Below, piece by piece: positions 1,384 to 36,858 of a stretch of DNA of 36,858 bases. The stretch is from a virus. The first letter of the stretch is position 1, and each line of letters begins with the position of its first letter. The position numbers and the translations under genes were made by a program. Location: UHGV virus genome UHGV-1010924. One strand, written 5' to 3'. The notes below the pieces were generated by a model. That model searched no databases. It worked only from the letters and a program-made list of their open reading frames with translations, and was not told the DNA's origin.

Positions 1384-1403
1384 AAATAGTCGGGAAACCG
1401 ACA
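1384..1403 (+). promoter_or_regulatory. Conserved late-region element, copy 1
   Basis: aaatagtcgggaaaccgaca. It lies 12 nt after the scaffold stop and 170 nt upstream of the capsid start. Confidence 0.6.
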
Positions 1404-1571
1404 CCCCCCACGCACGAACATCGCAGGCATCCCAGCAATGGGCCGGCCTGCGATGGCACGCAGACACCCGGAAAGCCCCGAGGCGCAGCAAAGCCGATGC
1501 ACGCCAGGTAATCCCGGCCCGCGATGCGGACAACCGGCAGGCAATCCCTAATCTGCATTGGAGTGCATCAT

Positions 1572-2942: not shown

Positions 2943-2975
2943 TTTCACGGGCCGCCATGGACGGCAACAATTTAC

Positions 2976-3001
2976 CGGGGCCGTGTGCCCCGGTCTTTTT
3001 A
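2976..3001 (+). terminator. Rho-independent terminator after the capsid genes (analogous to T7 T-phi)
   Basis: Stem ccggggc/gccccgg (7 bp), loop cgtgt, followed by tcttttta. Confidence 0.75.
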
Positions 3002-3014
3002 TCTGGAGGTTGGG

Positions 3015-5764: not shown

Positions 5765-5771
5765 GGTTCCC

Positions 5772-6215: not shown

Positions 6216-6216
6216 C

Positions 6217-8753: not shown

Positions 8754-10657
8754 GCTGGCTAGACGGGATGATCGAGGACAACGAAGCGCTGAGCCAAGAC
8801 CAGCGCCTCGACCGCACCACGGATAAGCTGGCGCCTGGCGTGTTCACGGGCGCACTCAGCACCATCGGGCCTAACCTGCTACGCGGCGCCATTGAGGGCG
8901 GTCGTACGATCCAGTCCACGGCGTTGCAACTGGGCAGCCTGGCCGTTGAATCCGACCTGTCCATCAGCTCATCGTACGCGCCGGATGATGGCCAACTGGC
9001 TGATCAGCAGCAGTTTCGGGAAACCCAGGCCCGCGACATCGGCGAGAAAACCGCCAAGTCGGTCATGAGCCTGCGCCCCGACCCAAGTGAGGTCGGCCTT
9101 GTCGGCCAGATCCTGGGCGAGGCATCCGCCGTATTGCCGCGTACCATTGCCGGCGCCGTGGTTGCCGGTCCTGCCGGTGCGGCCCTGGCTGCTGGTGGAC
9201 CAGCAGGTTTCTCCAGCAAGCAAGTGGGCATGGCCGAGGGCCTGGACGAATCCACCGCCACCAAAAAGGGCTTGATCGACGCCGCGACCACGGGCATCGG
9301 CGTTGCGCTGCCGGCGGCCAGGTTCGTCAAACCGATCCTCGGCGATGCCGCTATTGCTGTCGGTGCCAACGTTGGGCTGGGCATGGCCGGCCGTGGTGCT
9401 ACCGCCGCGCTACTGGAAAGCAATGGCTATCACAGCCAGGCCGCACAGTACAAAGCCTTGGACGGAACAGCGATGGCGACCGATGCGATCATGGGCCTGG
9501 CCTTCTTTGGCCTTGGCCGTGTCAACTTTCGCCGCCCGACCACTCGCCAAGTGGATGCCGCGCTGACTGAACGCACCAACCAGCATGCCGATATCGACAC
9601 CGCCCCGGGTGCACCCATTGATCCAAAGTCGGCCATGGCCCACCAAGACGCGATCCGTACCGTGATCGACCAGCTGCAACGCGGTGAGCCGGTGGTGCTG
9701 CCCGACAGCATCCATAGCGCCCAATTCATTCGCGCCGCCGATGAGCCGCGCGGTATGGCGCCGAGCAAGGACGCCGCCCTTGCCACGGCGCGCCAGGATC
9801 TGGAGCCGAAACTGCGCGTTGAGCTGGAGCAGGAAGCCGCCGGCATCTTGCCAAACGTAAAGGACGTGAAGGCCGAACTGTCTACCGTTGCCCAAAACCT
9901 GGCCGCCCTGGACGACACCTTCAAGGCCCGTGCCAAGGAATTCCAGCAGCAGGGGCAGAGCCGCAAGCAGGCCGAAGCATCCGCGCGCCAGGCAATTGAG
10001 GCTGATCGGCTTGACCTGTCCGACCGTCAAAACTCGTTGAACGAAGCATTGGGCGGTAACCGAAGTGCCGAGCATCCGCGCGCAGACCTGAATGCGCTGG
10101 ATCGCGGCGAGGTGCCGGCCAGGTTCCAGGATCGCTTATCACAACGCGCCGATGCCATCGTGCAGGGTTTCGAGAAAAAGCCGTTGGCTGCCGGTGTCGC
10201 CGAGGCCAACACCAAGCTGACCATGGCGCAGATCGCCCGCCAGGAAATCACCCGCATCCTCGACGACATCGAGCGTGCCGACCCTACGTTGCAGCCGAAA
10301 GCTCTGGACATTCCGGAGCCAAAGGTTGCACCGAAGGCCGATGGCGCGGCGCCCAAGGCTGAATCCCCACCTGGTGGGAAAGCTGGCGCGCAAGATAAGC
10401 CAGCCCCGGCGAACGATGCCGCCAAGCCTGATGGTGCAGCAGCCCAGGCCGATCCGGTGGTGCAGGTTGCCGACGAAATCCTATCGCGCGTCGATGACAT
10501 GCGTATCTCAACGGGCGCCATGGACGCCGACGGCAACCCGATCACAGTATCGGCGCGTGAACTGCTGGCCAATGCTGACGCAGAAATCGTCAAGGCCCAG
10601 CAGGACGCCAAGGGTTTCGCCGCCGCCGCCGCTTGCTTCCTGCAACGCGGGCTCTAA
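8750..10657 (+). CDS. Internal virion (ejection/core) protein (635 aa)
   Basis: Large Ala-rich protein in the core-protein block. Its stop TAA lies inside late element copy 2. Confidence 0.55.
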   Translation: MSWLDGMIEDNEALSQDQRLDRTTDKLAPGVFTGALSTIGPNLLRGAIEGGRTIQSTALQLGSLAVESDLSISSSYAPDDGQLADQQQFRETQARDIGEKTAKSVMSLRPDPSEVGLVGQILGEASAVLPRTIAGAVVAGPAGAALAAGGPAGFSSKQVGMAEGLDESTATKKGLIDAATTGIGVALPAARFVKPILGDAAIAVGANVGLGMAGRGATAALLESNGYHSQAAQYKALDGTAMATDAIMGLAFFGLGRVNFRRPTTRQVDAALTERTNQHADIDTAPGAPIDPKSAMAHQDAIRTVIDQLQRGEPVVLPDSIHSAQFIRAADEPRGMAPSKDAALATARQDLEPKLRVELEQEAAGILPNVKDVKAELSTVAQNLAALDDTFKARAKEFQQQGQSRKQAEASARQAIEADRLDLSDRQNSLNEALGGNRSAEHPRADLNALDRGEVPARFQDRLSQRADAIVQGFEKKPLAAGVAEANTKLTMAQIARQEITRILDDIERADPTLQPKALDIPEPKVAPKADGAAPKAESPPGGKAGAQDKPAPANDAAKPDGAAAQADPVVQVADEILSRVDDMRISTGAMDADGNPITVSARELLANADAEIVKAQQDAKGFAAAAACFLQRGL

Positions 10658-10675
10658 ATAGTCGGGAAACCGTCT
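10656..10675 (+). promoter_or_regulatory. Conserved late-region element, copy 2
   Basis: aaatagtcgggaaaccgtct. It overlaps the stop of the 8750-10657 gene and lies 45 nt upstream of the 10721 gene. Confidence 0.6.
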
Positions 10676-10689
10676 ACCGCTGAACCATA

Positions 10690-10719
10690 GGCTTGCTCCC
10701 ATTCAACCAGGAGCAAGCC
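10690..10719 (+). other. Perfect 10-bp stem-loop sequestering the Shine-Dalgarno sequence of the 10721 gene
   Basis: ggcttgctcc (10690-10699) pairs with ggagcaagcc (10710-10719) across a 10-nt loop. The AGGAG ribosome-binding site lies in the 3' arm. The ATG is at 10721. Confidence 0.6.
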
Positions 10720-10720
10720 C

Positions 10721-13261
10721 ATGCGCCCCGAATGCATCAAGGCCGTCACCCAGGCAATCGGCCGAACTCTCAACCAGCAGGAAATCCAGGGCATCGAGAA
10801 CCGCGTGCGCCGCAACATGAAGCAGCTGGCGCAGACCGATGCAACCTGGCAATCCAAGACCGCCGCCGACCGCTTGAATGAAGCCGCCGCCAAGTCTGCC
10901 AAGGATCTGGTGGCCGAGGCAGATCTCAAGAAAAAGCGCGTGGCGCTGACCATCCTGGCCCATGACCGCATCGACAGCTACATGCAGCGCTTCCCGGAAC
11001 GTCCGCTGGAAGGGCTCGACCGGATGCTGGCGTTTTCCAGTGACGGCAAGAGCGGGATCATGTCCATTGAGACCGCCACCCGAGCTATCCGCGATGACTC
11101 GCTGAGCCGCATGCTCGACGTGATCGACCAGACCAAGGGCAAATTCCTCGGCCTGTTCCAGAACGAGGCGGGGAACCTGGCCCTGGTGCGCGAGCTGCAC
11201 GGTGAGGACTCCGGCAGCGCCGTGGCCAAGACCGCCGCCAAACAGTTCAAGGACACCGCCGAGCAACTGCGCCAGCGCTTCAATCGGGCCGGCGGCGACG
11301 TTGGCTTCCTTGATGACTGGTCAATGCCGCGCGACCACTCCCAGGTCAAGGTCGCCAAGGATCAGGCCAAGTGGGTCGCCGATCATGTGCAGTGGGCGAA
11401 CCGGTCCAAGTACCTCAAGGAAGACGGTACGCCAATGAATGATGCGGAGCTGACAGACTTCCTCCAGAACGCTTGGACCACCTTGGCTACCGGTGGCGCC
11501 AACAAGATGGAGCCGGGGCAGGCCGCCGGCAACGGGATGCGCGCCAACCGTGGCAGCGAGTCGCGCCAGATCCACTACAAGGACGCGGAAAGCTTCATCG
11601 CGGCACAGAAGGCGTACGGCGACCGCAACCTGCTGGAATTGCTGATCGGCCATATCGACCGTGCCGCGCGGGACATCGCCCTGGTGGAAACCCTGGGCCC
11701 CAACCCAAGCAACCAGATGCGCTACTTCCTGGACACCGGACAGAAAGCCATGGACATGGCCAAGCCGAACAACCTTGCCAAGACCGCCAAGCAGCGCAAG
11801 AAGATTGAACACTTGTTCGAAGAGGTGGCCGGCACCCGCGAGCCGCCGGTATCTGCCGCTCTGGCCAATGGGTTCGACACCTACCGGGCGCTGAACGTCG
11901 CAAGTCGCCTTGGTTCTGCCGTCCTTACGGCTATCACTGACATGGGAACGCTAGGACTCACTACAGTCATCAACCATATGCCAGTTATGAAGGTGTTTGC
12001 CAATGAGCTGCGCATGTTGAACCCGGTAAATGCTGGGGATAGACGTTTGGCCCAGCGCGGCGGCCTAGGGCTAAACCAGCTTATCGGCAGCCTGAACAGA
12101 TTTGGCGCTGATGGGCTTGGTACTAATGAGCAAATAGCGGGGCGCATATCAAAATTCTCACAGACAGCTGCAAGCAAAATCATGCAGATATCTGGCCTTA
12201 ACGCCTTTACTGCAGCATCTCAGCGCGCGTTCGGCGCCACCATGCTCGACACCCTGGGCGACATGACCCGCCGGCATGATTCCTTGGCTGCCATGGATCC
12301 GGCCGACGCCAAGCGTTTGTCCGGGCAGGGCGTCACCGACGCGGACTGGTCTGTCTGGCGCATGGCTGAGCCCGAGGACTGGCGCGGCGTGGGCGATACC
12401 GTGCTGACGGCAAACAGCATCTACCGCATCCCTGACGCCGACCTGGCTCCCATGGCGCAGCAACTCAACACAACCCCGCAGCGCCTCAAGGATCAGGCCG
12501 CCACCAAGCTGCTGGGCGCCGTGCTGGATGAAACCAACATGGCGATCATCGAACCCGGCGCCCGCGAGAAGGCAATGATGCACGGCGGCGTCGAGCGCGG
12601 GACCATGAAGGGCGAACTGTTGCGCTCGTTCTGGCAGTTCAAGAGCTTTTCCATCGGCATGATCATGCGCCACGGCGCGCGCGGCATGGCCCAGGAAGGA
12701 TGGGGCAAGGCTGGCTATCTGGCTGCGCTGGTGGCTTCCACCACCGTGCTGGGCGGAATGGCCATCCAGTTGGGCGAGGTGGCCGCCGGCCGCGATCCGA
12801 AGGACATCACCGATGACAAGAAGTGGGGCGTACCGGGCCTGCGCTTCGGCCTGGCCTCATTCCTCAAGGGCGGCGCCATGGGGCTGTACGGCGACTTCCT
12901 GTTCTCCGATACCTCGCAGGGCGGTAGCTCGCCACTGGCCGCGCTCGGCGGCCCTATCGCGGGCGATCTGGAATCGATCTTCAAGTTGAAGGACAACGCC
13001 GCCGACGGCGAAGTCAACCAAACCGGCGGCAAGCTGGTGCGCCTGCTCAAGAGCCACTTGCCTGGCGCGAACCTCTGGTACACCAAGGCCGCCACCGATC
13101 ACCTGATCTTCAACCAATTGCAGGAGTACTTCTCGCCCGGCTACCTGCGGCGGATGAAACAGCGCGCCCAGAAGGAATTCAAGCAATCGTACTGGTGGGA
13201 ACCGGGCGATTCGACACCAGATCGCGCGCCGAACCTGGGCGCCGCAGTAGGAGATAAGTGA
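10721..13261 (+). CDS. Internal virion protein, gp16-like (846 aa)
   Basis: Largest core-block protein, immediately before the terminase genes. I could not recognise a lytic transglycosylase motif by eye. Confidence 0.55.
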   Translation: MRPECIKAVTQAIGRTLNQQEIQGIENRVRRNMKQLAQTDATWQSKTAADRLNEAAAKSAKDLVAEADLKKKRVALTILAHDRIDSYMQRFPERPLEGLDRMLAFSSDGKSGIMSIETATRAIRDDSLSRMLDVIDQTKGKFLGLFQNEAGNLALVRELHGEDSGSAVAKTAAKQFKDTAEQLRQRFNRAGGDVGFLDDWSMPRDHSQVKVAKDQAKWVADHVQWANRSKYLKEDGTPMNDAELTDFLQNAWTTLATGGANKMEPGQAAGNGMRANRGSESRQIHYKDAESFIAAQKAYGDRNLLELLIGHIDRAARDIALVETLGPNPSNQMRYFLDTGQKAMDMAKPNNLAKTAKQRKKIEHLFEEVAGTREPPVSAALANGFDTYRALNVASRLGSAVLTAITDMGTLGLTTVINHMPVMKVFANELRMLNPVNAGDRRLAQRGGLGLNQLIGSLNRFGADGLGTNEQIAGRISKFSQTAASKIMQISGLNAFTAASQRAFGATMLDTLGDMTRRHDSLAAMDPADAKRLSGQGVTDADWSVWRMAEPEDWRGVGDTVLTANSIYRIPDADLAPMAQQLNTTPQRLKDQAATKLLGAVLDETNMAIIEPGAREKAMMHGGVERGTMKGELLRSFWQFKSFSIGMIMRHGARGMAQEGWGKAGYLAALVASTTVLGGMAIQLGEVAAGRDPKDITDDKKWGVPGLRFGLASFLKGGAMGLYGDFLFSDTSQGGSSPLAALGGPIAGDLESIFKLKDNAADGEVNQTGGKLVRLLKSHLPGANLWYTKAATDHLIFNQLQEYFSPGYLRRMKQRAQKEFKQSYWWEPGDSTPDRAPNLGAAVGDK

Positions 13262-13596
13262 TGCGCGACGATCAAATCACGCGGTTGCAAGCCCTGAGTG
13301 AAAGCCTCGGCGAGGTTGTCATCCATGAGGTTGACCCGGCGAACTGGCCCGGTGCCGAGAAAGACCCAGCAGACCTAACCCAGCAGGAGCGGGGTGATAG
13401 GTACTGGAGCAAGAAAAACGCAGCCGCCACCATGACGCTGCTGCTCAAGGTCGTGAACATCAGCGGCGTCCTGAACAAGCAAAAGCCGGGTGAGGATGAT
13501 GGCGCCGCCAAGGAACTGGATGGCGAATTAGCTGCCGCCGAACGTGAGGCCCAGGCCATCATCGACCGGATGCAGCGAGCCGGGAATGTCCACTGA
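13261..13596 (+). CDS. Putative terminase small subunit (T7 gp18-like, about 111 aa)
   Basis: Small acidic protein directly upstream of, and overlapping, the large terminase. RBS AGGAGA at 13250-13255. Confidence 0.45.
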   Translation: MRDDQITRLQALSESLGEVVIHEVDPANWPGAEKDPADLTQQERGDRYWSKKNAAATMTLLLKVVNISGVLNKQKPGEDDGAAKELDGELAAAEREAQAIIDRMQRAGNVH

Positions 13597-15208
13597 ACCA
13601 GAGAAGAAAGTCAGCCTACTGATTTTCTTCATGCTGTGGGCGCGGCGCATGCGATGGGATGTGCCGTACATCCATGTGCAGGCGCTTATGTGGCTGGAGA
13701 CCAAAGGGTCTCTGGCCGTTTTGCGTTGCTTCCGTGGCTTCGGCAAGTCGACGTTGTTGGCGATCTACAACGCCTGGCGCTACTACAAGAACCCGACCGA
13801 CCGGATATTGCACCAATCAGAATCCGACCCGACCGCGTACAAGACCAGCCGCGATACGCAGAACGTCATACGCAACCATCCATTAACCCGCCACCTGCTA
13901 CCACCCAACCAGGGCACGGTAGAGCAATGGTGGGTAGAGGGCGCCACGGACTTTCGAAACGCCAGCATGTTCGCCAAGGGGATTTTGTCCAACGTTACCT
14001 CGGCCCGTGCAGACGAGTGCCAGAACGATGATGTCGAGGTGCCGCGCAATATCCAGACGCCCGAGGCCCGAGAGAAGCTGCGCTACCGCCTGGGCGAGCA
14101 GACACACATTCTGGTTCCTGGCGGCAGCAAGCTTTACATCGGCACGCCGCACACCCACGACAGCCTCTATGACGAACTCGAAAGCATGGGTGCCGACTGC
14201 CTGACCATCCGCATGTTCGCCCAGGAGCATCGGATTGAGGACGCTAAACAGTGCGCGTACGACGTTCCGTTTGTGCCGGACGTTGTGTTCTCGGGCATTG
14301 GTAAGCATGCGCGCGTGCTGTTGGCTGGGCGGGATTACCAACTGACCAAGACCGGTATCGCCTTCTTCACCCCGCCCGGAACGCTCGTCGACTGCTACGC
14401 CGGCAGCGCCTGGCCTGAGCGTTTCGACATGGCGACCCTGGAGACGCGGCGCCGCGAGACCCGGACCATCAACGAATGGGACTCCCAGTATCAGCTGCAT
14501 TCGAAGCCCGTCACGGAGGTTCGCTTGGACCCGGCCCGCATCATCCCGTACGACGCGCAGCCGGTTATGCGCTATGCCAACGATTCCGCCGCCATGTTCC
14601 TGGGCTCGACGCAGATCGTCGGTGCCGTGGCTTATTGGGACTGTTCCCTGGGCAAGATCAAGTCCGATGCCTCGGCCTTCTCGCTGATCCTCACCGATGC
14701 GCGCGGCCAGCTCTATTGGCATTTGGCCGTGGGCCTGACCGGGGAGATCGCGGAGTTCGACGGCAAGGACCGGATCATTGGCGGCCAGGTGCACCAGATC
14801 CGCGAACTGGTGATCAAGCATCAGATCCCGCGCGTGATCATCGAGACCAACGGCCCAGGCGGGTTTGCTCCCACCATCCTCAAGCAGGCGCTCAAGGGCA
14901 CCGGCTGCGGGGTAGGGGAGGAACACTCCACCACCAACAAGCAGAAACGCATCCTAGACGCCTTCGAATCGCCGCTATCAGCACGGTTCCTATGGGCGCA
15001 CGTCGAAGTGTTGAAGGTGATCTGGGACCAGATGCGCGACTTCAATCCAGCGCTCACCAACCAGGAAGACGACTACATCGATTCCGGGGCCGGCGGCATC
15101 GCTCAAACCCCCGTACGCATTGGCCGAATAGTCGGGAAACCGACAGAGACCCGTCGTGACAATTGGCGTCCAGATGCGGGCGTTCATGAGGTTCAAGTGG
15201 ACTATTAA
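13586..15208 (+). CDS. Terminase large subunit (T7 gp19-like)
   Basis: ATG at 13586 (MSTEPEKK). P-loop-like GFGKSTLL. About 540 aa. Lies between the small terminase and the tail fibre. Confidence 0.8.
   Translation: MSTEPEKKVSLLIFFMLWARRMRWDVPYIHVQALMWLETKGSLAVLRCFRGFGKSTLLAIYNAWRYYKNPTDRILHQSESDPTAYKTSRDTQNVIRNHPLTRHLLPPNQGTVEQWWVEGATDFRNASMFAKGILSNVTSARADECQNDDVEVPRNIQTPEAREKLRYRLGEQTHILVPGGSKLYIGTPHTHDSLYDELESMGADCLTIRMFAQEHRIEDAKQCAYDVPFVPDVVFSGIGKHARVLLAGRDYQLTKTGIAFFTPPGTLVDCYAGSAWPERFDMATLETRRRETRTINEWDSQYQLHSKPVTEVRLDPARIIPYDAQPVMRYANDSAAMFLGSTQIVGAVAYWDCSLGKIKSDASAFSLILTDARGQLYWHLAVGLTGEIAEFDGKDRIIGGQVHQIRELVIKHQIPRVIIETNGPGGFAPTILKQALKGTGCGVGEEHSTTNKQKRILDAFESPLSARFLWAHVEVLKVIWDQMRDFNPALTNQEDDYIDSGAGGIAQTPVRIGRIVGKPTETRRDNWRPDAGVHEVQVDY
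15127..15145 (+). promoter_or_regulatory. Conserved late-region element, copy 3
   Basis: aatagtcgggaaaccgaca. It lies inside the 3' end of the large-terminase coding sequence, 90 nt upstream of the tail-fibre start. Confidence 0.55.
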
Positions 15209-15234: not shown

Positions 15235-17448
15235 ATGGCAGTTCCAGCAGGACCAACCGAAAAACGTTACACCGGCAACGGGGTAACCAAGATTTTCTCC
15301 ATACCCTTCTTGCTCATAGCTGCAACTGACCTGGATGTAATCATTGATGGCGTTGAGGTTGTTTCCGGATACGCGATAACGGGCGCAGGCAATCCGAGCA
15401 GCACTATCACATTCGTCACGGCGCCTGCGGACCAAAGCTCAATCCTGCTTACGCTCAACGTACCGTTTGAACGACTGAACGACTACCAAGAGAACGGCGA
15501 TTTTCTTGCTAGTACTGTAAACCGAGACTTCGACAAGATATGGCAAGCACTTAAGCAGCTCGTTCGGTACAGCACCAGGGCGCTTACGCTCGGTGCTTTT
15601 GACGTCGATGGTGCCGGACTGTACAGGGCCAAAGGTAATGGTATCGCCAACCTCGGATCTGCCAATGGCGTTGACACGGCGGCAGCGAACTGGAAGGACG
15701 TTAAGGACCAGATAGCGTTGGTTCTGGCGACGGGCCAGGGTCCAATCAATAATGCGGCGAATATGGCTTACATCACTCCATCTAGCAACGTGCGCACCGT
15801 TCAAGGCATGTCCGGGGCTGACGGCTCGTATTTTATTGGGCATGGGGATACGACAGTTGGTGCTGAGATTGTTGCCATTGATGCTCAACTACAAGCACAG
15901 GCTGGGCAGATATCCAAAACGGGGATCTATCCGGGGCAGCACTTTGCGGCAATTAATGGCGGCCAGTTAAACAAACTGCGCCTGGCTTTGACTGATCCGT
16001 TCATGCAATACCTTGGAATCTGCATCATCGGTGACAGCATCACTTGGGGGATGACGGCATCCGGCATCGCGCCGATTGAGCCGCGAGGCGGCTCTCTGAC
16101 AGATTCCAGGAACAACGGTTCGTCGGCGACCTGGGTGAATCTTTTGCACAAGTGGTTGGGCGCCGAATATTACGATTCGACAACGGTTGAAGAAGGAATT
16201 TGGCCTGGCACGCCAAACGGCGTGGCACAGTTCACCTACACCAAAGCTGTGGATATGTTTCCAGGGTTTGCACCGTTTGTTAAGGTCGGCTCGTTCTCCC
16301 AGCTTGTTGATGCGGCATCAACCCTGGGGGTTTTTTGGTTTGTGAACATGAGTTCGTCGGGTAGCGGCCCCCACTCGTTCACTTGGACCATGACAGGAAA
16401 AAGCTTTGATCTGCGTTTTGCCGCAGTGCCCAATGGGGCGGATTACAAGGTATATGTCGATGGTGTTCTGCAAGGGCAATACAAAACCAGTTCCACCGAT
16501 CTGGGAATTCCTGTCAGCTATCGCAATAGCAGAACTCACGACTTCACATTTAAAAAGGGCGCGGTGATACGCGTAGAGGCGGTAGGCGGTAACGTTGCTC
16601 GCGATGTACTTCAAGTTGAATCGATCCGCCTCAACCGAAAAGTAAGAGTGACCAACCAAGGGATTATTGGTGTCGCGTCTGATCGTTATTTGAATGTGCT
16701 GCTGTCAAGCGCGCTACGCGCCGATGATTCGTTCTGCAAGATTCAGATTGGCACCAATGATCGCGGCATGCCCCCGGCTATTGGGGCTCCAACTTCCCCA
16801 GCGACACTCAGCAAGAACATGGGGTTGATACTTGACTACGTGATTGCGGCAGGGGTATCGCCCATCATGATGTGCGCCAATGAGGTAGTGGATAACAGTC
16901 TGCCTACCTATTACTACAGCATGGGCCAAGTTAGAACGGTGCTTTCGAGTTTGGCAATAAGCCGTGGTGTGGACTTTATTGATCAGTTTGCACTTACCAA
17001 AAGACTGCAGGCGGCAGGTGTTAATTATTTGGCTGACGGCCTTCACCCAAATGACCTTGGGCATTTCTTGATGTTCGAAAACATCAGGAACGCCATCGGC
17101 AACCCGGTGTTTGTGGCCGAAAAGAGCCTTGCCAATTACTACGAAACCACGGTTTCCTGGACAGCCGGCGCCGTACAGACCATCACGCACAACCTGGGTG
17201 CGATCCCTGTTCGCGTTGAGTTTGAAGTCGTAATGAAAACGGCGGGGGCGGGAATGGCTGTAGGTCAGTCGGCCATGACTTCAATGACGATTCAGGCTGC
17301 TGCGAGCTACAACGCAATGGCACGCAGCGGCACGACTACAACAGTGGAGGTTGTTGTTGCGCCCCAGGGCCTCGCGGTTCTGGTCGCCGGTGGCTCAAGC
17401 GTCTTGAGCCCTGCCCAGGCTGATTTGAAGGTGAAGGTTTTCACGTAG
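15235..17448 (+). CDS. Tail fibre/tailspike: T7 gp17-like N-terminal adaptor domain fused to an SGNH/GDSL esterase domain
   Basis: The N-terminus (YTGNGVTKIFSIPFLLIAATDLDVIIDG) matches the T7 tail-fibre N-terminal domain pattern. Residues 262-271 carry the GDSL block LGICIIGDSITWG. Near the C-terminus is the block-V motif DGLHPNDLGH. GC is about 50%, against about 62% for the genome. Confidence 0.7.
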   Translation: MAVPAGPTEKRYTGNGVTKIFSIPFLLIAATDLDVIIDGVEVVSGYAITGAGNPSSTITFVTAPADQSSILLTLNVPFERLNDYQENGDFLASTVNRDFDKIWQALKQLVRYSTRALTLGAFDVDGAGLYRAKGNGIANLGSANGVDTAAANWKDVKDQIALVLATGQGPINNAANMAYITPSSNVRTVQGMSGADGSYFIGHGDTTVGAEIVAIDAQLQAQAGQISKTGIYPGQHFAAINGGQLNKLRLALTDPFMQYLGICIIGDSITWGMTASGIAPIEPRGGSLTDSRNNGSSATWVNLLHKWLGAEYYDSTTVEEGIWPGTPNGVAQFTYTKAVDMFPGFAPFVKVGSFSQLVDAASTLGVFWFVNMSSSGSGPHSFTWTMTGKSFDLRFAAVPNGADYKVYVDGVLQGQYKTSSTDLGIPVSYRNSRTHDFTFKKGAVIRVEAVGGNVARDVLQVESIRLNRKVRVTNQGIIGVASDRYLNVLLSSALRADDSFCKIQIGTNDRGMPPAIGAPTSPATLSKNMGLILDYVIAAGVSPIMMCANEVVDNSLPTYYYSMGQVRTVLSSLAISRGVDFIDQFALTKRLQAAGVNYLADGLHPNDLGHFLMFENIRNAIGNPVFVAEKSLANYYETTVSWTAGAVQTITHNLGAIPVRVEFEVVMKTAGAGMAVGQSAMTSMTIQAAASYNAMARSGTTTTVEVVVAPQGLAVLVAGGSSVLSPAQADLKVKVFT

Positions 17449-17477: not shown

Positions 17478-18773
17478 CTACCCGTTCACCTTTAATTTGA
17501 ATTCTGCGCGCTGCACTTCGGTCACTCCATCACGCAGCGCGTCGAGATAATCCGCATACCACTGCATCATGTGGCGGCGCTGGGCCAGGTATTTGGCTTT
17601 GTTGTACACGCCGCTTATGCCGCCTTCCTTGTGGGCCAACTGCATTTCGATGTGATCTTTCTCCCATCCGTGTTCGCGCAGCAGCGTGCTTGCGGTGTGT
17701 CGGGTGCCGTGACCTACCAGCCTTCCTTTATAGCCAACCAGGGCGAACACCTTATTAATGGTGTTCTCGCTGATAACCGGGTTTGCGTGGCCGTTACCGG
17801 GGAACAGGTATCGACTGCGCCCGGTTAGTTCGTGCAGATCTCGCAGCGCGGTGACAGCCTGCTTTGGTAAAGGGATCATGATGTCCCGGTCCATCTTCAT
17901 CTTGGCCGCCGACACGCTCCACACCGAAGCTTCCAGATCGAAGTCGGTCCACTCTGCCCACCTGGCCATGCCTGGGCGAGACGCGGTCCACAGCGTGAGC
18001 ATCGCCGCCGCCCTGGCAATCAACCGGCTGGGCGAGCGCTGCATGGCCCGCATGAAGTCGGGCAACTCGTCTTCCAGCAGGTGCGGGTATTGTTTGGTGG
18101 CGGGTGCCTGGGCGGCGATCACCAGCAGCTCGGAGGCCGGGTTGTATTCCATCATGCCCTTGGCTATGGCCTGGCTGAAAATCTCCTTCAACCACCCGCG
18201 CGTTTTCTTGGCGACGTTGAACGCCTCGCGCGCCTCAATGCTGGCGAGCAGGTCGGCGCAGTGCCGGCGGGTGATAGCGCTGACCTGCAAATCGCCCAGC
18301 GCGGGGTAGATGTCCTTGTCCAAGTAGGTCGTGATCTTGTCGAGGGTTGACGCCGAACGCCCGTCGCGCTCCTTCTTTTCAAGCCAGGCAGTGGCCACGG
18401 CGCGGAAGGTGCTGGCGGTGGCGGCCTCCACGGCCTTCTTGACGGCCTGCTTGTGGTTGCCTGGGTCGATACCTTGCTCAAGCAGGGCGGATGCCTGTGA
18501 GGCTTTCTCCCTGGCGCGCTTGGCTGAATACTCCGGGTATCCGCCCAACCCCAGCCAGGTCCACTTCCCGTCAGCCACACGCTTGTAGCGGAACTCCCAG
18601 CGCTTGCGCCCATTGGGTGACACCACGAAGTAGATACGATCGATGCCGTACGTCTCGCGGTATTCCTTGGATTCAGGTTCAAGTGAGGACAGGACGGTGT
18701 CGGCCAGGGGGCGGCGCTTGATGTCTGATCGCTTCAATTCTTGTATGGCCGAGTTCGTAATTTTGGCGAACAT
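17478..18773 (-). CDS. int: Tyrosine integrase, P4-type, with an N-terminal arm-DNA-binding (DUF4102-like) domain
   Basis: 431 aa. The N-terminus follows the P4-integrase arm domain pattern (RYKRVADGKWTWLGLGGYPEYSAKRAREKA). The C-terminus has HGTRHTASTLLRE, LAH and a Tyr in VYNKAKY (the R-H-R-H-Y catalytic set). Confidence 0.9.
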   Translation of the reverse strand: MFAKITNSAIQELKRSDIKRRPLADTVLSSLEPESKEYRETYGIDRIYFVVSPNGRKRWEFRYKRVADGKWTWLGLGGYPEYSAKRAREKASQASALLEQGIDPGNHKQAVKKAVEAATASTFRAVATAWLEKKERDGRSASTLDKITTYLDKDIYPALGDLQVSAITRRHCADLLASIEAREAFNVAKKTRGWLKEIFSQAIAKGMMEYNPASELLVIAAQAPATKQYPHLLEDELPDFMRAMQRSPSRLIARAAAMLTLWTASRPGMARWAEWTDFDLEASVWSVSAAKMKMDRDIMIPLPKQAVTALRDLHELTGRSRYLFPGNGHANPVISENTINKVFALVGYKGRLVGHGTRHTASTLLREHGWEKDHIEMQLAHKEGGISGVYNKAKYLAQRRHMMQWYADYLDALRDGVTEVQRAEFKLKVNG

Positions 18774-26671: not shown

Positions 26672-27328
26672 CTACAGCGCCGATCTAGGCCACTTTGCGT
26701 CAACCACACGCCCAACGACTGACCATGTGTCATCCACCTCTACGGTGGGAAATGCAGGGTTCAAAGGTTTTAGGTAGGCTCGGCCCGAGTCCCATATGAA
26801 CTGCTTGAACGTCGCTTCATTAGTGTCTATCAGCTTAGCTACGACATATTGACCATTCTCCACGTCGCCACCCGGCGCCACCAGGATCAGCATCCCCTCG
26901 CTGAAACTCATTCCATTCGTCGAGGTCATGGATGGACCTCTGACCTTTAGCCAGAAGCCGTTAGGCCCGGCCCAGGCGTCGGATGGGTGCATCGCTTCGA
27001 AGTCGCCTACGTTGAACAAATCCATTGCCTCCGCCGCCACCCCAGCCTGCACCCAACTAATTTCCGGGTATTCATAATATCGCGTTGGTCCCTGAGCTGA
27101 CTCAACGTTGGCATCAAAGGTGTCATCTCCAATTCCATACATAAGCCACTCAGGGGAAACCTTAAGTGCTCGTGCCAACTTGGCAATAGTCGGCATACGC
27201 GGGCTTTCGCTCTCGCCTGACAGTATCCGATTGATTGTTGGCTGAGGAACACCAGACCTTTTGCCGAGCTGCGTTTCATTCAGGCCAATGTCGGCCATTT
27301 TTGCGCGTATGCGCCCAGCGATATCCAT
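26672..27328 (-). CDS. cI: CI-type repressor: XRE HTH plus a LexA-like S24 autopeptidase domain
   Basis: The N-terminal HTH is QLGKRSGVPQPTINRILSG. The C-terminal S24 signature has GPSM with its Ser, and the Lys of VAKLID. 218 aa. Divergent from cro. Confidence 0.9.
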   Translation of the reverse strand: MDIAGRIRAKMADIGLNETQLGKRSGVPQPTINRILSGESESPRMPTIAKLARALKVSPEWLMYGIGDDTFDANVESAQGPTRYYEYPEISWVQAGVAAEAMDLFNVGDFEAMHPSDAWAGPNGFWLKVRGPSMTSTNGMSFSEGMLILVAPGGDVENGQYVVAKLIDTNEATFKQFIWDSGRAYLKPLNPAFPTVEVDDTWSVVGRVVDAKWPRSAL

Positions 27329-31149: not shown

Positions 31150-31616
31150 CCGACAAGATCAGCGTCAACAGCGCCACCAAGCTCTCAGAGGCCATCAACG
31201 CCCTGACAGCCATGTACCGGGAAAAGAAGTTCGTCGTCGTCTCCCTGCGCCCAGGCAAGGACCGCACCCTGGATCAGAACGCCCTGTGGTTCGCCCTGTA
31301 CCAGCGAATCGCCCAGATGACCCAGCTCGGTGACGTGGAGGACGCCCGCCGGTACTGCAAGCTGCACTTCGGCGTGCCGATCATGCGCGCCGCCAGTGAA
31401 GACTTCCGTCACGGCTACAACATGGCGCTGCTCAACCTGCCATATGAGACCAAGCTCAGCTGGATGGGACCGTGCGCACTGTTCGGCCCGGACGGCTTCC
31501 CGGTGACTCGCCTGTTCAATCGCGCCCAGGGCATCGCCTACACGGACCAGATCGTGGCCGAGTTCAGCGCCAAGGGTGTGGTGTTTACTGATCTGCTGGG
31601 CGAGGTGGCGGCGTGA
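31146..31616 (+). CDS. ninB: NinB/Orf-family recombination mediator
   Basis: RTLDQNALWFALYQRIA matches the lambda NinB motif RSLDQNRKLWACLGDVS. 156 aa. Confidence 0.85.
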   Translation: MTDKISVNSATKLSEAINALTAMYREKKFVVVSLRPGKDRTLDQNALWFALYQRIAQMTQLGDVEDARRYCKLHFGVPIMRAASEDFRHGYNMALLNLPYETKLSWMGPCALFGPDGFPVTRLFNRAQGIAYTDQIVAEFSAKGVVFTDLLGEVAA

Positions 31617-31798
31617 GCAAGACATCCCAGCGCAAGCGCCAGGCGTACGAAGAGGGTCACCGTGATGCTAAGAGCCGCAACGGGATCAGGTATTCGCGCC
31701 ATCCATTCATGGATGCGTACAGAGCCGGATATCGGGATGGTTTGGATGCTTCCAAGCCGAGAACCTTGCTTCAATGGTTCCGCGAGGTATTTGCATGA
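31613..31798 (+). CDS. Hypothetical basic small protein (61 aa)
   Basis: GTG start overlapping the ninB stop; its stop overlaps the ninG start. Confidence 0.4.
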   Translation: MSKTSQRKRQAYEEGHRDAKSRNGIRYSRHPFMDAYRAGYRDGLDASKPRTLLQWFREVFA

Positions 31799-32590: not shown

Positions 32591-32851
32591 ATGCTCGCCC
32601 ATGCGGAGGTGCGCGTTGACTGGTTCCAGGTCATCAACGGGATTCTGCGTGCTGGGTATTCGATCCAGTCGGCGGCGGAGGTGATCAAGGTTCCGCGTTC
32701 AACGTTGATCGGATGGAAGCAGGGTGCAGAGCCTCGGTATACGGAGGGTGAGCGCCTTGTGTCGTTCTGGGTCCAGGCTACGGGCCGGGACCGTAAATCA
32801 TTGCCCATGGTCGCGGTAGGGGACTGGTGGGCTTATCACTCGAAAGCATGA
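32591..32851 (+). CDS. Small HTH protein (86 aa); candidate late-gene regulator at the lambda Q position
   Basis: ATG at 32591 with RBS GGAGG. HTH-like YSIQSAAEVIKVPRSTLIGW. It is the last regulatory-looking gene before the late element, terminator and lysis cassette. Confidence 0.45.
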   Translation: MLAHAEVRVDWFQVINGILRAGYSIQSAAEVIKVPRSTLIGWKQGAEPRYTEGERLVSFWVQATGRDRKSLPMVAVGDWWAYHSKA

Positions 32852-32861
32852 GGGAATACCG

Positions 32862-33185
32862 ATGAAACACGAAGACGAACAACGCGTAATTGACCTGGCC
32901 GATGCTGCAGGTCGGGCTATGAGCAATGGCTTGCTTGGCCTGTCCGCCAAGCTGGCTGCCGAGGCTGAGAATTTGTTGCTGCAAGGCAGTGGCCAATCGT
33001 TCCTGGCCTATGGCGAACGTCGCGGGTTGAATATGGATCTGTTGCTCCCGCCCGGCCGCACCGTAAATGGCGAGCACCGACGCTATGAAAGCGAGAAAAC
33101 CCAAGAACTATTCGATTGCTGGCTTGCTGCTCGCGGGCAGAAGGTGTGGACTCCGCCAACTGATGGCGCAACGCCAGTCAAATAG
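32862..33185 (+). CDS. Hypothetical protein (107 aa)
   Basis: RBS GAGGG. Its stop TAG lies inside late element copy 4. Confidence 0.45.
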   Translation: MKHEDEQRVIDLADAAGRAMSNGLLGLSAKLAAEAENLLLQGSGQSFLAYGERRGLNMDLLLPPGRTVNGEHRRYESEKTQELFDCWLAARGQKVWTPPTDGATPVK

Positions 33186-33199
33186 TCGGGATTCCGACA
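33180..33199 (+). promoter_or_regulatory. Conserved late-region element, copy 4 (variant loop), directly upstream of a strong terminator and the lysis genes
   Basis: aaatagtcgggattccgaca. It overlaps the stop of the 32862-33185 gene. The terminator begins 31 nt downstream. Confidence 0.6.
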
Positions 33200-33230
33200 C
33201 CTGACAAGAACGACTCTTAGCGTCATCGCA

Positions 33231-33260
33231 GCCCAGCCACCTCGCGCTGGGCTTTTTTTT
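33231..33260 (+). terminator. Strong rho-independent terminator between late element copy 4 and the holin gene (like tR')
   Basis: Stem gcccagc/gctgggc, loop cacctcgc, followed by a run of eight T. Confidence 0.8.
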
Positions 33261-33277
33261 GACTCTGGAGGCCAACC

Positions 33278-33556
33278 ATGACGGCACCAGACAGGAGTAG
33301 CAGCATGGCCAACCCAGCACCCGAAAGCATCGTAGAGGTCGTTGGCGCGTCAGTCGCCAGCAAGGGGATGCTTACGGGCGGCGCCGTGGGGTTGGTTGGG
33401 TTCTTCTCGCAAGTGAACTGGATAGGCGTGTCGGGCGTTGTGATCGCGGTACTGGGCCTGCTGACAAACCTGTACTTTCAGGTGCGCAAGGATCGACGCG
33501 AGTCCATCGAAAGCGCCGCGCGCATTGAGTCGTTGAAAGAGCGTGCACGTTCATGA
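33278..33556 (+). CDS. Pinholin (phage 21 S-like class II holin)
   Basis: TMD1 MLTGGAVGLVGFF is weakly hydrophobic. TMD2 IGVSGVVIAVLGLLTNLYFQVRKDRR matches the phage 21 S pattern LGFLTYLTNLYFKIREDRR. Two Met codons lie near the N-terminus. Confidence 0.75.
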   Translation: MTAPDRSSSMANPAPESIVEVVGASVASKGMLTGGAVGLVGFFSQVNWIGVSGVVIAVLGLLTNLYFQVRKDRRESIESAARIESLKERARS

Positions 33557-34068
33557 GCCCCCAACTGCGTCAGCGCATCGCCGTAGGAATGCTGAGCATC
33601 AGCGCCGCCGGCTTCGCTACCTGGCAGGCCAACGAAGGCTTGACCACCACCGCAGTAATCCCCACACAGGGCGACGTGCCCACCATCGGCCACGGCTCGA
33701 CCCGTTACGAAGACGGCTCGCCAGTCCGCATGGGCGACACCATCACGCCCCAGCGCGCCGAGATCCTGGCCCGCAACCTGAACAGCCAAGCCGAGAAGCA
33801 GTTCGCCGCGTCACTGCCGGGTGTCACGCTGCATCAAACTGAGTTCGATGTGTACATGGACTTCGTGGGCCAGTACGGCATTGGCACCTGGCTCAAGGGC
33901 TCACCGCGCCGTGACCTGCTGGCCGGGAACTACGCCCAGGCTTGCAACGACCTGCTCAAGTACAAGTACGCCGCTGGGTTCGACTGCTCCACGCCGGGTA
34001 ACAAGCGGTGTGCTGGAGTCTGGGCTCGGCAGTTGAAGCGCCATGCCAAGTGCATGAGCGTGCAGTAA
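33553..34068 (+). CDS. SAR endolysin, T4-lysozyme-like (GH24)
   Basis: The N-terminal SAR domain IAVGMLSISAAGFATW is followed by EG...D...T in ANEGLTTTAVIPTQGDVPTIGHGST, as in phage 21 R. ATGA overlap with the holin. Confidence 0.85.
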   Translation: MSPQLRQRIAVGMLSISAAGFATWQANEGLTTTAVIPTQGDVPTIGHGSTRYEDGSPVRMGDTITPQRAEILARNLNSQAEKQFAASLPGVTLHQTEFDVYMDFVGQYGIGTWLKGSPRRDLLAGNYAQACNDLLKYKYAAGFDCSTPGNKRCAGVWARQLKRHAKCMSVQ

Positions 34069-34092: not shown

Positions 34093-34446
34093 GTGAACGA
34101 TCAATCGATTGAGCAAGAAATCCAGGCCAAGGGCCTGACCGCGCCGCGCGTCACTCCGGCGGACCTGCAAGCCAATATCAAGGGGTGTGTCTACTTCACC
34201 GCCCAAGATGGTGTGCAGGGCAGTGATCCACATATGGCGCAATACACCGACAAGTCGCTGGATCTGCTGACCTTCTGTGTCCTGGTGCTGCGCAACGGTT
34301 TCACCGTCACCGGCGAGAGCGCATGCGCCAGTCCTGAGAACTTCGACGCGGAGTTAGGCCGCAAGATCGCCCGCCAGAACGCCGAGCAGAAGGTATGGCC
34401 GCTGATGGGCTACGCGCTCAAACAGCAACTGTACGCCGAGTCCTGA
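34093..34446 (+). CDS. Gp49-like lysis-module protein (117 aa; tentative Phage_gp49_66 family)
   Basis: GTG start after AGAGG. The GFTVTGESACASPENFDAELGRKIA pattern is recalled from lysis-region proteins of the N4 gp49 and Sf6 gp66 type. Confidence 0.4.
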   Translation: MNDQSIEQEIQAKGLTAPRVTPADLQANIKGCVYFTAQDGVQGSDPHMAQYTDKSLDLLTFCVLVLRNGFTVTGESACASPENFDAELGRKIARQNAEQKVWPLMGYALKQQLYAES

Positions 34447-34457
34447 CCGTGGGCGCC

Positions 34458-34901
34458 ATGGCTCGCTATCTCGTTGCAGGGCTTGCCATGGCGCTTGTTC
34501 TGGCGTTGTGGCGTCTCGATCATGTCAGCACCAGCCTTGCCGCCGCAACGCAGCGTGTGAGCGAGCTGGAGACCGCCAACGCATCACGCCGCGCCACCCA
34601 GAAGCTGCTGACCCAGCTCGACACCGACAACACGAAGGTACTCACCGATGCTCAAGCCCAGAACAAAGCCCTGCTTGCTCGCCTTGGCACTGGCGCTCAG
34701 CGGCTGTCAGTCCCAGCCAAGTGCCCCGTCGTGCGAACCAGCCCAGGCCCCGGCCGCGTGGATGATGCAGAAGCGCGCGCCGAACTTGACCCAGCGGCTG
34801 GTCAACGAATTGTCGGCATCGCCAACGACGGAGACGAAGCAATCATCGCCTTGAATGGATTGATCGATTACGTCAACGCCAGCTGCCTCCCTCGCAAATA
34901 G
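34458..34901 (+). CDS. Rz: Rz-like i-spanin
   Basis: An N-terminal TMD LVAGLAMALVLALW is followed by a coiled-coil periplasmic domain. An embedded lipoprotein ORF is present. An alternative GTG start lies at 34449. Confidence 0.7.
   Translation: MARYLVAGLAMALVLALWRLDHVSTSLAAATQRVSELETANASRRATQKLLTQLDTDNTKVLTDAQAQNKALLARLGTGAQRLSVPAKCPVVRTSPGPGRVDDAEARAELDPAAGQRIVGIANDGDEAIIALNGLIDYVNASCLPRK
34648..34854 (+). CDS. Rz1: Rz1-like o-spanin lipoprotein, embedded in Rz in the +1 frame
   Basis: Signal plus lipobox LLALALALSGC. The mature part is Pro-rich. It lies wholly inside Rz in a different frame. Confidence 0.65.
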   Translation: MLKPRTKPCLLALALALSGCQSQPSAPSCEPAQAPAAWMMQKRAPNLTQRLVNELSASPTTETKQSSP

Positions 34902-34915
34902 TCGGGAACCCGACA
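34896..34915 (+). promoter_or_regulatory. Conserved late-region element, copy 5 (variant)
   Basis: aaatagtcgggaacccgaca. It overlaps the Rz stop and lies 55 nt upstream of the 34971 gene. Confidence 0.55.
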
Positions 34916-34970
34916 GCCCAACCCATTGATTCTGGCCCTCGTTGATCAACAACCAACTGAGGCCAGACCA

Positions 34971-35353: not shown

Positions 35354-35557
35354 ATGGGCAGCAAGCCAAAGGCACCAAAGACCGTTGCCGCACCTGATCC
35401 GCAGGTTGAAGCCCAGAAGGCCGCAGACCTGGCAGCCCAGAAGGCCAACGAAGAGACCGCCACCCGCAAGAAGCGCAAGGCCGAGAGCAGCCTGCTCTCC
35501 ACTGGTGGCGCTGCTGGGTCCGTACTTGATCAGGGCAAAAGGACACTCGGCGCATGA
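35354..35557 (+). CDS. Small basic/Ala-rich protein (67 aa), possibly a T7 gp6.7/7.3-like minor virion protein
   Basis: Its stop overlaps the portal ATG (ATGA). Confidence 0.4.
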   Translation: MGSKPKAPKTVAAPDPQVEAQKAADLAAQKANEETATRKKRKAESSLLSTGGAAGSVLDQGKRTLGA

Positions 35558-36858
35558 ACGCAGACCAGATCGCCAAAACGCTGAGCACCTTGAAGTCACT
35601 CCGCTCACCGCATGAGACGGTCTGGCGCGATTGCTTCGATCACAGCTACCCGATCCGGGGCAGTGGCTTTTGCACTGAGCAGATCTCCGCCATCGAGGCG
35701 CAGATGCGCAAGGCAAGGATGATCGATGGCACCACCACGGACGCGGCGCGGATCTTGTCGTCCGGGATCATGTCCGGCCTGACCCCGGCGAACTCGCTGT
35801 GGTTCGGCATGGACGTGGGCCAGGAAAGCGAGGACGAGCGCCGCTGGCTGGATGACTCAGCCGACATCCTGTGGCAGAACATCCACGCCTCCAACTTCGA
35901 TGCGGCGGCCTTTGAGGGCCTGATCGACGTTGTATGTGCTGGCTGGTTTGCCCTGTACATCGATCAGGACATGGAGAAGGGCGGCTTCACGTTCGATCTG
36001 TGGCCTATCGCGAGCGTGTACTGCTCGGCGTCCAAGGCAGGCGGCAAGATCGACACCGTGTACCGCGAGTACAAGCTGACGGCTGAACAGGCTGTCAACG
36101 AGTTCGGCGAAGAGAACCTGAGCGAAGGCACGCGCAAGCTGGCCAAGGAAAAGCCGCAGGAAATGGTTAGCTTCGTCCACGCCATCTACCCACGCACTAC
36201 GCACATGGTCGGCGCCAAGCTGGCCAAAAACATGCCGGTGGCATCGTGCAAGGTGGAAGTCGAGGCCAAGCGCCTGGTGAGTGAGTCGGGCTATCACGAA
36301 ATGCCTGTCGTTGTGCCGCGCTGGATGATGATCCCTGACAGCGTGTACGCCGTGGGCCCGGTGTTCGATGCCTTGCCCGACTCGCGCACCCTGAACGAAT
36401 TGTGCCGGATGGACCTGGCAGCCGGTGACCTGGCCATCGCTGGCATGTGGATTGCCGAGGATGATGGCGTGTTGAACCCGCGAACCGTCAAGGTTGGGCC
36501 GCGCAAGATCATCGTGGCCAACAGCGTTGAGAGCATGAAGCCATTGCAGTCCGGCTCCAACTTCCAGTACGCCGAGACCAAGATCCAGCGCCTGCAGGGT
36601 TCTATCCGCAAGATCCTGATGGCCGACCAGCTCCAGGCCCAGGATGGCCCAGCGATGACCGCGACCGAGGTGCATGTGCGTGTGAACCTGATCCGCCAAC
36701 TGCTGGGCCCGGTGTACGGCCGGCTCCAGACTGAGTACCTGCAACCGATGATTGAGCGGTGCTTCGGCATTGCCTACCGCGCCGGGGTTCTGGGCACTGC
36801 GCCTGAGTCGTTGGCTGGTCGCAACTTCACTGTGCGTTACCTGTCGCCGCTGGCCCGC
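35554..36858 (+). CDS. Portal (head-to-tail connector) protein, N-terminal 435 codons; the ORF is open at the window end
   Basis: ATG at 35554 after AAAAGGA. It runs to the window end in frame 1, the same frame as the portal C-terminus at 1-291. Together they give about 532 aa (T7 gp8 is 536 aa). Confidence 0.8.
   Translation, partial: MNADQIAKTLSTLKSLRSPHETVWRDCFDHSYPIRGSGFCTEQISAIEAQMRKARMIDGTTTDAARILSSGIMSGLTPANSLWFGMDVGQESEDERRWLDDSADILWQNIHASNFDAAAFEGLIDVVCAGWFALYIDQDMEKGGFTFDLWPIASVYCSASKAGGKIDTVYREYKLTAEQAVNEFGEENLSEGTRKLAKEKPQEMVSFVHAIYPRTTHMVGAKLAKNMPVASCKVEVEAKRLVSESGYHEMPVVVPRWMMIPDSVYAVGPVFDALPDSRTLNELCRMDLAAGDLAIAGMWIAEDDGVLNPRTVKVGPRKIIVANSVESMKPLQSGSNFQYAETKIQRLQGSIRKILMADQLQAQDGPAMTATEVHVRVNLIRQLLGPVYGRLQTEYLQPMIERCFGIAYRAGVLGTAPESLAGRNFTVRYLSPLAR

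Follow-up and report, generated by a model that had tools for sequence, protein, structure and literature searches.

The late promoters controlled by the C protein of phage Mu have -10 hexamers without -35 hexamers and carry a dyad at -43.5 (PMC2582627). Other small late activators act elsewhere, Lpa of phage P1 at -22 and Ogr of phage P2 at -55 (PMC3152322). Here we describe a candidate system of a comparable kind in the virus genome UHGV-1010924, a stretch of 36,858 nucleotides (nt) that is referred to below, at its full length, as the window. According to its map of open reading frames (ORFs) and family scans, this is the genome of a temperate Pseudomonas podovirus with a T7/HTVC010P-like structural module and no RNA polymerase gene. 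The system has three parts: a conserved element repeated before the late genes; HTH86, an 86-amino-acid (aa) helix-turn-helix (HTH) protein encoded upstream of the lysis genes; and an intrinsic terminator, here called terminator 33230, located between one copy of the element and the lysis genes. With modest confidence we favour a single model in which five promoters are activated by HTH86 and a leaky terminator serves the lysis genes alone as attenuator and insulator.

The probable late promoter element and its linkage to HTH86

The 20-mer AAATAGTCGGGATTCCGACA is present in five copies, all on the plus strand (at 1384, 10656, 15126, 33180 and 34896), and shuffled sequence gave no matches. When the window was searched with a matrix built from relatives only, these five sites scored 35-49 bits and every other site on either strand 8 bits or less. 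All five copies are on the coding strand, 66-141 nt upstream from the start codons of late genes, and the genes behind them are the lysis genes, a 140-aa ORF with the portal group, the capsid gene, the gene for an 846-aa virion protein and the fibre gene. T7 has class III promoters at the map positions of several of these copies. The copies, and the two genes that precede copy 4, are as follows.

1384-1421, plus strand: predicted late promoter copy 1 (element 1384-1403, -10 GAACAT 1416-1421), before the major capsid gene
10656-10693, plus strand: predicted late promoter copy 2 (element 10656-10675, -10 TAGGCT 10688-10693), before the 846-aa virion protein gene
15126-15163, plus strand: predicted late promoter copy 3 (element 15126-15145, -10 GACAAT 15158-15163), before the tail fibre gene
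33180-33199, plus strand: upstream element of predicted late promoter copy 4, AAATAGTCGGGATTCCGACA, before the lysis genes
33212-33217, plus strand: -10-like hexamer of copy 4, GACTCT, with a predicted start at about 33224-33225
34896-34933, plus strand: predicted late promoter copy 5 (element 34896-34915, -10 GATTCT 34928-34933), before the 140-aa ORF, portal and scaffold genes, with no terminator
32591-32851, plus strand: HTH86, 86-aa HTH protein and proposed late-promoter activator (PHROG 16553/17493; AlphaFold2 model)
32862-33185, plus strand: 107-aa ORF, a variable accessory gene whose TAG stop lies in the promoter element

The element is 19-20 bp long and consists of AAATA and the dyad GTCGG-N4-CCGAC. 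A scan of viral contigs with its core motif found at least 115 loci; the counts of instances given here are of unique instances among the matches listed. Counted from the start of the element, position +33 is A in 146 of 154 instances and position +37 is T in 142 of 154, while the bases flanking these two carry little information, +32 being mostly G or T. We read the A and T as the A2/T6 signature of a sigma-70-type -10 hexamer, nAnnnT, located 12 bp past the element. This hexamer accompanies all five copies in the window (P ~8e-8, or 5e-5 after a generous correction). No match to a -35 hexamer was found in any of the element promoters, and the element stands in its place. Because the promoters have no -35 and only a weak -10, they need positive control. 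With the usual spacing from -10 to start, the element is predicted to extend from about -44 to -25, with the centre of the dyad near -32.5, and the predicted start of copy 4 (~33224/5) falls in a conserved TCATCG. The element is thus very probably a late promoter, and one that has not been described before: neither 14-mers of the motif nor the HTH86 protein family were found in the searchable literature. A preliminary description of this DNA had allowed that the element might be a promoter; the hexamer at a fixed distance, which that description had not seen, bears this out.

The element also overlaps coding sequence. Its invariant TAG is the actual stop codon of the upstream gene at copy 4 (33183-33185) and copy 5 (34899-34901), as it is in 87 of 182 unique instances among relatives (upstream ORF of at least 60 codons). 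At copy 2 the upstream gene ends in a TAA instead, overlapping the element at its 5' edge. The large terminase ORF (13544-15208) contains copy 3, 83 nt upstream from the stop codon of that ORF, and here the element is translated as RIVGKPT.

HTH86 is encoded by the last conserved gene of the early-right operon. Its AlphaFold2 model (mean predicted local distance difference test score, pLDDT, 87) has the XRE/Cro fold, that is, a lambda-repressor-like helical HTH, which is shared with dimeric HTH regulators including activators that bind near -35. No Pfam domain is assigned, the match to HTH_3 (13.3 bits, E 0.089) being under the cut-off of 23. There is no similarity to the Q, N, sigma or Mor/C families, and no relationship to Mor/C was found in sequence or fold. 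The family is unannotated, all of its named homologues being 'hypothetical'.

The gene and the element are closely linked. Among the matches listed, a same-strand copy of the element is found 3' of the HTH86 gene in all 33 viral loci that hold the gene, at -2 to 665 nt from it in 31 of the 33, and in distant relatives (37-43% identity) the element is just 2-31 nt past the stop codon. Most Pseudomonas prophages of the genome scan likewise have the element after the HTH86 gene. The Yersinia phage YeP5 has the gene and four copies of the element, with nAnnnT at identical spacing. What YeP5 and the window have in common is the structural module, the integrase, a weak Cro-like match and HTH86; in replication genes they differ considerably. 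YeP4-6 are the only ones of the cultured phages searched that carry HTH86, and the element was not found in Piluca, vB_EcoM_APEC or RpY1, which have a related capsid module and no HTH86. Linkage, co-occurrence and fold together suggest that HTH86 is likely to be the activator that recognises all five element promoters. The late switch, then, most likely lies in the activation of five promoter sites by this small HTH protein.

The 107-aa ORF between HTH86 and copy 4 seems to have no part in this. The protein has no Pfam or PHROG match, its 11 homologous clusters are all hypothetical, and it is upstream in just 4 of the 22 terminator-bearing relatives with informative upstream sequence. We rejected it as an antiterminator partner, since it has no family match, is rare and is missing from most relatives that keep the terminator.

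Terminators before the lysis genes and past the capsid module

Copy 4 is followed by an intrinsic terminator and then by the lysis cassette. A second conserved terminator lies past the capsid module.

33230-33253 with T8 33254-33261, plus strand: intrinsic terminator AGCCCAGC-CACCTCGC-GCTGGGCT, with an 8-bp stem and an 8-nt loop
33278-33556, plus strand: holin (PHROG 4237, E 2e-23; PF16082)
33553-34068, plus strand: endolysin (phage lysozyme) with a hydrophobic N-terminus (PF00959, PHROG 7)
34093-34446, plus strand: ORF of the N4 gp49 / Sf6 gene 66 family (PF13876), overlapping the Rz start by 52 nt
34395-34901, plus strand: Rz spanin (PF03245, PHROG 2466), its TAG stop inside promoter copy 5
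34648-34854, plus strand: Rz1, embedded in Rz, with an LSGC lipobox
2974-3001, plus strand: second intrinsic terminator, ACCGGGGCC..GCCCCGGT and a T-run, between the capsid module and tail tubular protein A

Six of the eight pairs of terminator 33230 are G-C, its folding energy is -15.4 kcal/mol, and it is the best plus-strand terminator across 27-36.9 kb. It begins 31 nt past the element, 5-6 nt past the predicted start and 45 nt past the last stop codon of the early operon, and the predicted late transcript includes all of it in its first ~37 nt, 17 nt upstream from the holin start codon. With the predicted start 5-6 nt before the hairpin, late transcripts would carry the whole terminator and end at about 35 nt unless read through. 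The position is kept in 26 unique relatives, in all of which the hairpin lies wholly 3' of the predicted start. The stem has one two-sided compensatory pair (GCCCAGC/GCTGGGC vs GCCCCGC/GCGGGGC) and several changes from G-C to G-U, and the U-tract ranges from T8 to the degraded TTTCTTTG and TCTCTTTG seen in many relatives. In folding, the hairpin also forms in the context of read-in RNA. An upstream anti-terminator structure in that RNA was considered and dropped, as none is predicted and the hairpin forms in both contexts. Among cultured phages, a search for element plus terminator found nothing but chance matches to the hairpin. In YeP5 the leader of the lysis promoter has no U-tract, and one folded segment of it is no better than shuffles, which is neutral for either reading of the terminator.

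The distribution of the terminator is what ties it to lysis. All 23 lysis-proximal copies of the element that were identified have one, starting 12-20 nt past the -10: these are the 16 of 16 copies before the holin family of the window and seven other terminator-bearing copies, and those of the seven that were inspected all precede lysis cassettes and add two more holin types. A terminator is absent from all 64 copies that precede genes for the capsid, the 140-aa ORF, the fibre or virion proteins, and none was found just downstream from copies 1, 2, 3 and 5 of the window. In one relative, L034 (IMGVR_UViG_3300002461_001174, ~3460-5000), a promoter-terminator-holin-endolysin-Rz unit follows the gene for a 635-aa internal virion protein, in the middle of the late region, so the promoter-terminator-lysis unit appears to move as a module. 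Relatives with structural genes behind the first late promoter have no terminator there. From the lysis-only distribution, L034 and these structural-first relatives it follows that the terminator belongs to the lysis cassette and not to the boundary between early and late genes. As the structural genes have promoter copies of their own that are free of terminators, terminator 33230 cannot gate late expression as a whole. We conclude that it most likely attenuates and insulates the lysis genes alone, and does so constitutively.

These results bear on several statements of the preliminary description. Copy 4 (33180-33199), the hairpin 31 nt later (33230-33253 with its T8) and the lysis genes beyond it are all where that description put them, and so is the 86-aa HTH gene at 32591-32851. 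The terminator that it saw is real and conserved in the 26 relatives, and its remark that the other four copies lack one is right. Its suggestion that control might differ over the remainder of the late module agrees with the four further promoter copies. The idea that the terminator gates all late expression does not survive the contrast between 23 of 23 lysis-proximal copies and none of 64 before structural genes. The HTH protein was said to stand in the position of Q; it matches none of the Q, N and sigma families, its modelled fold is that of XRE/Cro, and a role as activator of the five elements explains it better. A test of the 107-aa product (32862-33185) on the terminator had been proposed too, and this gene turns out to be a rare accessory lacking in several relatives that keep the terminator. 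The comparison with lambda PR'/tR' holds for the sequence of promoter, short leader, terminator and lysis genes and fails for Q, for the pause element and for a single late promoter.

Some features of the lysis cassettes may be recorded here. The holin N-terminus (33278-33310) reads MTAPDRSSSM, with a second Met at codon 10 (MKAPVRSxSM in relatives), and looks like a dual-start holin/antiholin motif in which the longer form has extra positive charge. The ORF of the gp49/Sf6-66 family, here between endolysin and Rz, is in some relatives found after the second late promoter instead. Behind the promoter-terminator unit of other relatives (L002, L053, L060) there are at least three unrelated holins, with Rz/Rz1 retained, and two endolysin types, lysozyme and a SleB/CwlJ-like hydrolase.

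The second terminator, at 2974, is retained by almost every relative, YeP5 among them, its stem showing many compensatory changes, and it lies where T7 has Tphi. Since the genes at 2985-10657 lack a promoter copy, their expression must rely on read-through of this terminator. Capsid and tail proteins are needed at roughly 35:1, the requirement for holin is low, and in T7 the leaky Tphi does such a dosage job without antitermination. By analogy, we suggest that this phage family may tune gene dosage through leaky terminators, which would fit both the ~35:1 ratio and the low need for holin. The degraded U-tracts of the lysis terminator in many relatives point the same way.

In the mechanism that we propose, host RNA polymerase would transcribe the late genes from five activator-dependent promoters, each made up of the upstream element where a -35 would stand, then 12 bp of spacer and a -10-like nAnnnT. 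HTH86 would bind the dyad, probably as a dimer, and recruit or activate the sigma-70 holoenzyme, and the A-rich 5' part of the element may serve as a proximal UP subsite. Transcription from copy 4 would start at ~33224/5, and most transcripts, its own as well as those reading in, would stop at ~33258-33261. The terminated RNA of copy 4 itself would be ~35 nt long, and a minority of transcripts would read through into the holin, endolysin and Rz/Rz1 genes. Terminator 33230 would in this way act as a lysis-specific attenuator and insulator, giving the lysis genes a small fraction of the transcription of the structural genes and shielding them from read-in. Partial read-through at 33230, the binding of HTH86 to the element and the start site are the parts of this model that we infer; the anatomy of the promoters, the joint occurrence of HTH86 gene and element and the tie between terminator and lysis cassettes are observed.

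Weighing alternative readings

The order of last early regulator gene, promoter, very short leader, strong terminator and lysis genes is PR'/tR'-like, and could mean regulated antitermination of the Q kind. HTH86 or another phage factor would then make the polymerase that started at the element termination-resistant, terminators 33230 and 2974 would stop unmodified polymerase only, and copy 4 without the factor would yield the ~35-nt RNA alone. The terminator is always 3' of the predicted start and never 5' of the promoter, and each of the two conserved terminators lies between an element promoter and genes with no other promoter, both of which such a system would explain. Against this, there is no homologue of Q, N, RfaH or any other antiterminator among the ORFs scanned, and HTH86 is a minimal XRE-type HTH. 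No -10-like pause element is found in the 5 nt between start and hairpin, nor within the hairpin; a terminator immediately downstream is present at only one of the five promoters; and the U-tracts are degraded in many relatives. The leaky Tphi of T7 achieves the same result without antitermination. We consider this reading rather unlikely, though it deserves to be kept in mind. Somewhat less probable is a combination in which HTH86, alone or with a host partner, activates the promoters and also leaves the polymerase termination-resistant, or in which the ~35-nt RNA is itself an abundant late regulatory product. If activation and termination resistance were combined, terminators 33230 and 2974 would pass only element-started transcripts, and a Q-like function would have arisen in an unrelated minimal protein. 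It is also unlikely that the hairpin at 33230 is a plain terminator of the early-right operon, incidentally near a late promoter and with little effect on late transcripts. Such a role would suit its place 45 nt past the last early-operon stop codon, its formation in read-in RNA with no competing upstream structure and its occurrence after the HTH86 operon in most relatives. It would not explain why the promoter-terminator-lysis unit of L034 stands after an internal virion protein gene in the late region, or why the hairpin is absent where structural genes follow the early operon of relatives. With the hairpin wholly 3' of the predicted late start in 26 of 26 unique cases, late transcripts would meet it too.

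The dyad of the element could also be a site for repression. PHROG 16553 carries the annotation 'transcriptional repressor', the fold of HTH86 is common to many repressors and the dyad overlaps the -35 region, a common operator position, so that HTH86 might be a repressor or timer acting there while some other host or phage factor reads the element. Promoters without a -35 and with weak -10 hexamers (mostly GAnnnT) call for positive control, however, and apart from the weak Cro-like match the window and YeP5 have no other regulatory gene in common. None of the host alternative sigma consensus sequences (sigma-28, -32, -E, -54), as we take them to be and by informal comparison, fits the element with nAnnnT. 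The HTH86 gene is also at the boundary between early and late genes, right before the first late promoter, as is the gene for Mu C (PMC2582627). We therefore hold repression to be improbable. More improbable by far is that the element works as a hairpin of RNA or single-stranded DNA, such as a nut/boxB-like site, a processing site or a stabiliser, and is not a promoter. GUCGG-GAAA-CCGAC is able to form a 5-bp stem with a GNRA-type loop, and the site just past a stop codon and before a terminator recalls lambda cro-nutR-tR1. Among 150 unique instances, however, the stem has 23 one-sided changes, the majority disrupting a pair, and none that is compensatory; the stem is broken by CCGAAC in the YeP5 copies and by AAATGTTCGGGAACCCGTCC in a Stenotrophomonas prophage, the loop varies freely, and an Rfam search of the element gave no match. 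The 23 one-sided changes against no compensatory ones indicate that the dyad is read as duplex DNA, and a hairpin would leave the conserved -10-like hexamer at its fixed spacing unexplained. We have rejected boxB/nut-like and ops-like RNA hairpins on these grounds, and regard the hairpin reading as already largely refuted.

The model of HTH86-activated promoters with a leaky lysis terminator has its own difficulties. The binding of HTH86 to the element is proposed from linkage and fold only, and the start sites are placed solely by the -10-like hexamer and the usual spacing. PHROG 16553 is, as noted, labelled as a repressor, and a dyad overlapping the -35 is a classical operator position as well. 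Terminator 33230, with its 8-bp stem and eight U, looks strong, not leaky. A pure insulator would be expected 5' of the promoter, and a place just past the start fits regulated antitermination at least as well. Finally, the 23 cases are not independent events, because the lysis-proximal terminators are all homologous even though the holins downstream from them differ.

Genome context and comparison with known systems

The remaining genes of the window are arranged as follows.

530-1372: scaffold
1524-2435: major capsid
2985-5764: tail tubular proteins A and B
6735-13261: internal virion proteins
13258-15208: small and large terminase
15235-17448: fibre
17478-18773, minus strand: integrase
26672-27328, minus strand: CI-like repressor

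The portal ORF is split, running from 35530 to 36858 and resuming at 1-288 on the plus strand; its counterpart in YeP5 is contiguous (18667-20004, then 20005-20187). As the ORF continues from the end of the window to base 1, the 36,858-bp window is a complete, circularly permuted genome. The early-right operon is lambda-like, with DnaB, NinB, NinG, the 86-aa HTH protein and the 107-aa ORF, followed by the lysis cassette. In family scans of the ORFs no homologue of an RNA polymerase, a sigma factor or a Q/N-type antiterminator was found, and there is none of RfaH or any other antiterminator. Promoters for a phage RNA polymerase or a phage sigma factor were dropped as candidates, as the ORFs scanned include a gene for neither. 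Between NinB and NinG there is a 61-aa ORF (31613-31798, plus strand) with an Arg/Lys-rich N-terminus (SKTSQRKRQAYEEGHRDAKSR) and no family match; it was rejected as an N-like protein, its homologue being absent from every related locus. A perfect 9-bp palindromic hairpin at 18836-18859 (AAAGCCGGC..GCCGGCTTT), with a terminator-like score on both strands, sits within a 106-aa minus-strand ORF (18679-18999) just past the integrase start. In a near-identity search of cultured phages with the region studied here, nothing was found but scattered matches to NinB, NinG and lysozyme.

Members of the group occur as prophages of Pseudomonas, Stenotrophomonas and other bacteria; the Yersinia phages YeP4-6 belong to it too. 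Our results provide a testable model of late transcription for these widespread, almost uncultured temperate podoviruses, which have T7-like virion genes and no RNA polymerase. Its components are a promoter defined to 38 bp and, as candidate activator, a member of an unannotated protein family, and the promoters and a Tphi-like terminator map where their T7 counterparts do. That a promoter-proximal terminator strictly accompanies the lysis cassette across three different holin types points to transcriptional damping as a conserved means of timing lysis. The motif is a cheap marker for the annotation of late operons in related prophages, and the pair of promoter and activator could be an orthogonal expression switch in Pseudomonas.

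Compared with lambda PR'-tR'-S, the locus has a PR'/tR'-like layout but a differing logic. In both, the early-right operon has the regulator as its last conserved gene, and behind it come a late promoter, a short leader ending in a strong intrinsic terminator and the lysis genes as the first late genes; a small terminated RNA is predicted here as well. No homologue of Q was found among the ORFs scanned, HTH86 having an XRE/Cro fold, and the promoter has no -35 and is apparently activator-dependent, whereas PR' is constitutive. The leader is ~35 nt long compared with 194 nt in lambda. There is no sigma-dependent pause: no nAnnnT occurs from ~33224 to the end of the hairpin, and only 5-6 nt precede the stem. 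Four more promoter copies, free of terminators, serve the structural genes here, so that the terminator governs lysis only.

The resemblance to Mu C lies in several late promoters with a -10, no -35 and a conserved imperfect dyad overlapping the -35 region, and in a small HTH activator gene (proposed here) just 5' of the first late promoter, which drives the lysis genes. The dyad is centred near -32.5 here and at -43.5 in Mu, and no relationship of HTH86 to Mor/C was found. To our knowledge, a promoter-proximal terminator is not a feature of Mu. With P1 Lpa and P2 Ogr the system would share a small phage activator (proposed here), the host sigma-70 holoenzyme and multiple late promoters whose conserved repeat keeps a constant distance to the -10; the position of the site (-22 and -55 in P1 and P2) and the protein family differ, and no co-factor is known here. 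The proposed activation by HTH86 thus parallels that by Mu C, P1 Lpa and the controller (C) proteins of restriction-modification systems, without membership of HTH86 in the Mu C, Lpa or Ogr families. Nor does HTH86 have a significant family match to controller proteins or other XRE/Cro-type regulators (HTH_3, E 0.089), and it differs from controller proteins in an extra C-terminal beta-strand and helix and in its proposed role in phage late-gene control. As with the class III promoters of T7, there are promoters before the capsid and fibre genes, and as with Tphi, there is a conserved terminator just past the capsid module that requires partial read-through. In T7 these promoters are served by a phage RNA polymerase; in the present family, which has none, they are predicted to consist of a sigma-70-type -10 and an activator site.

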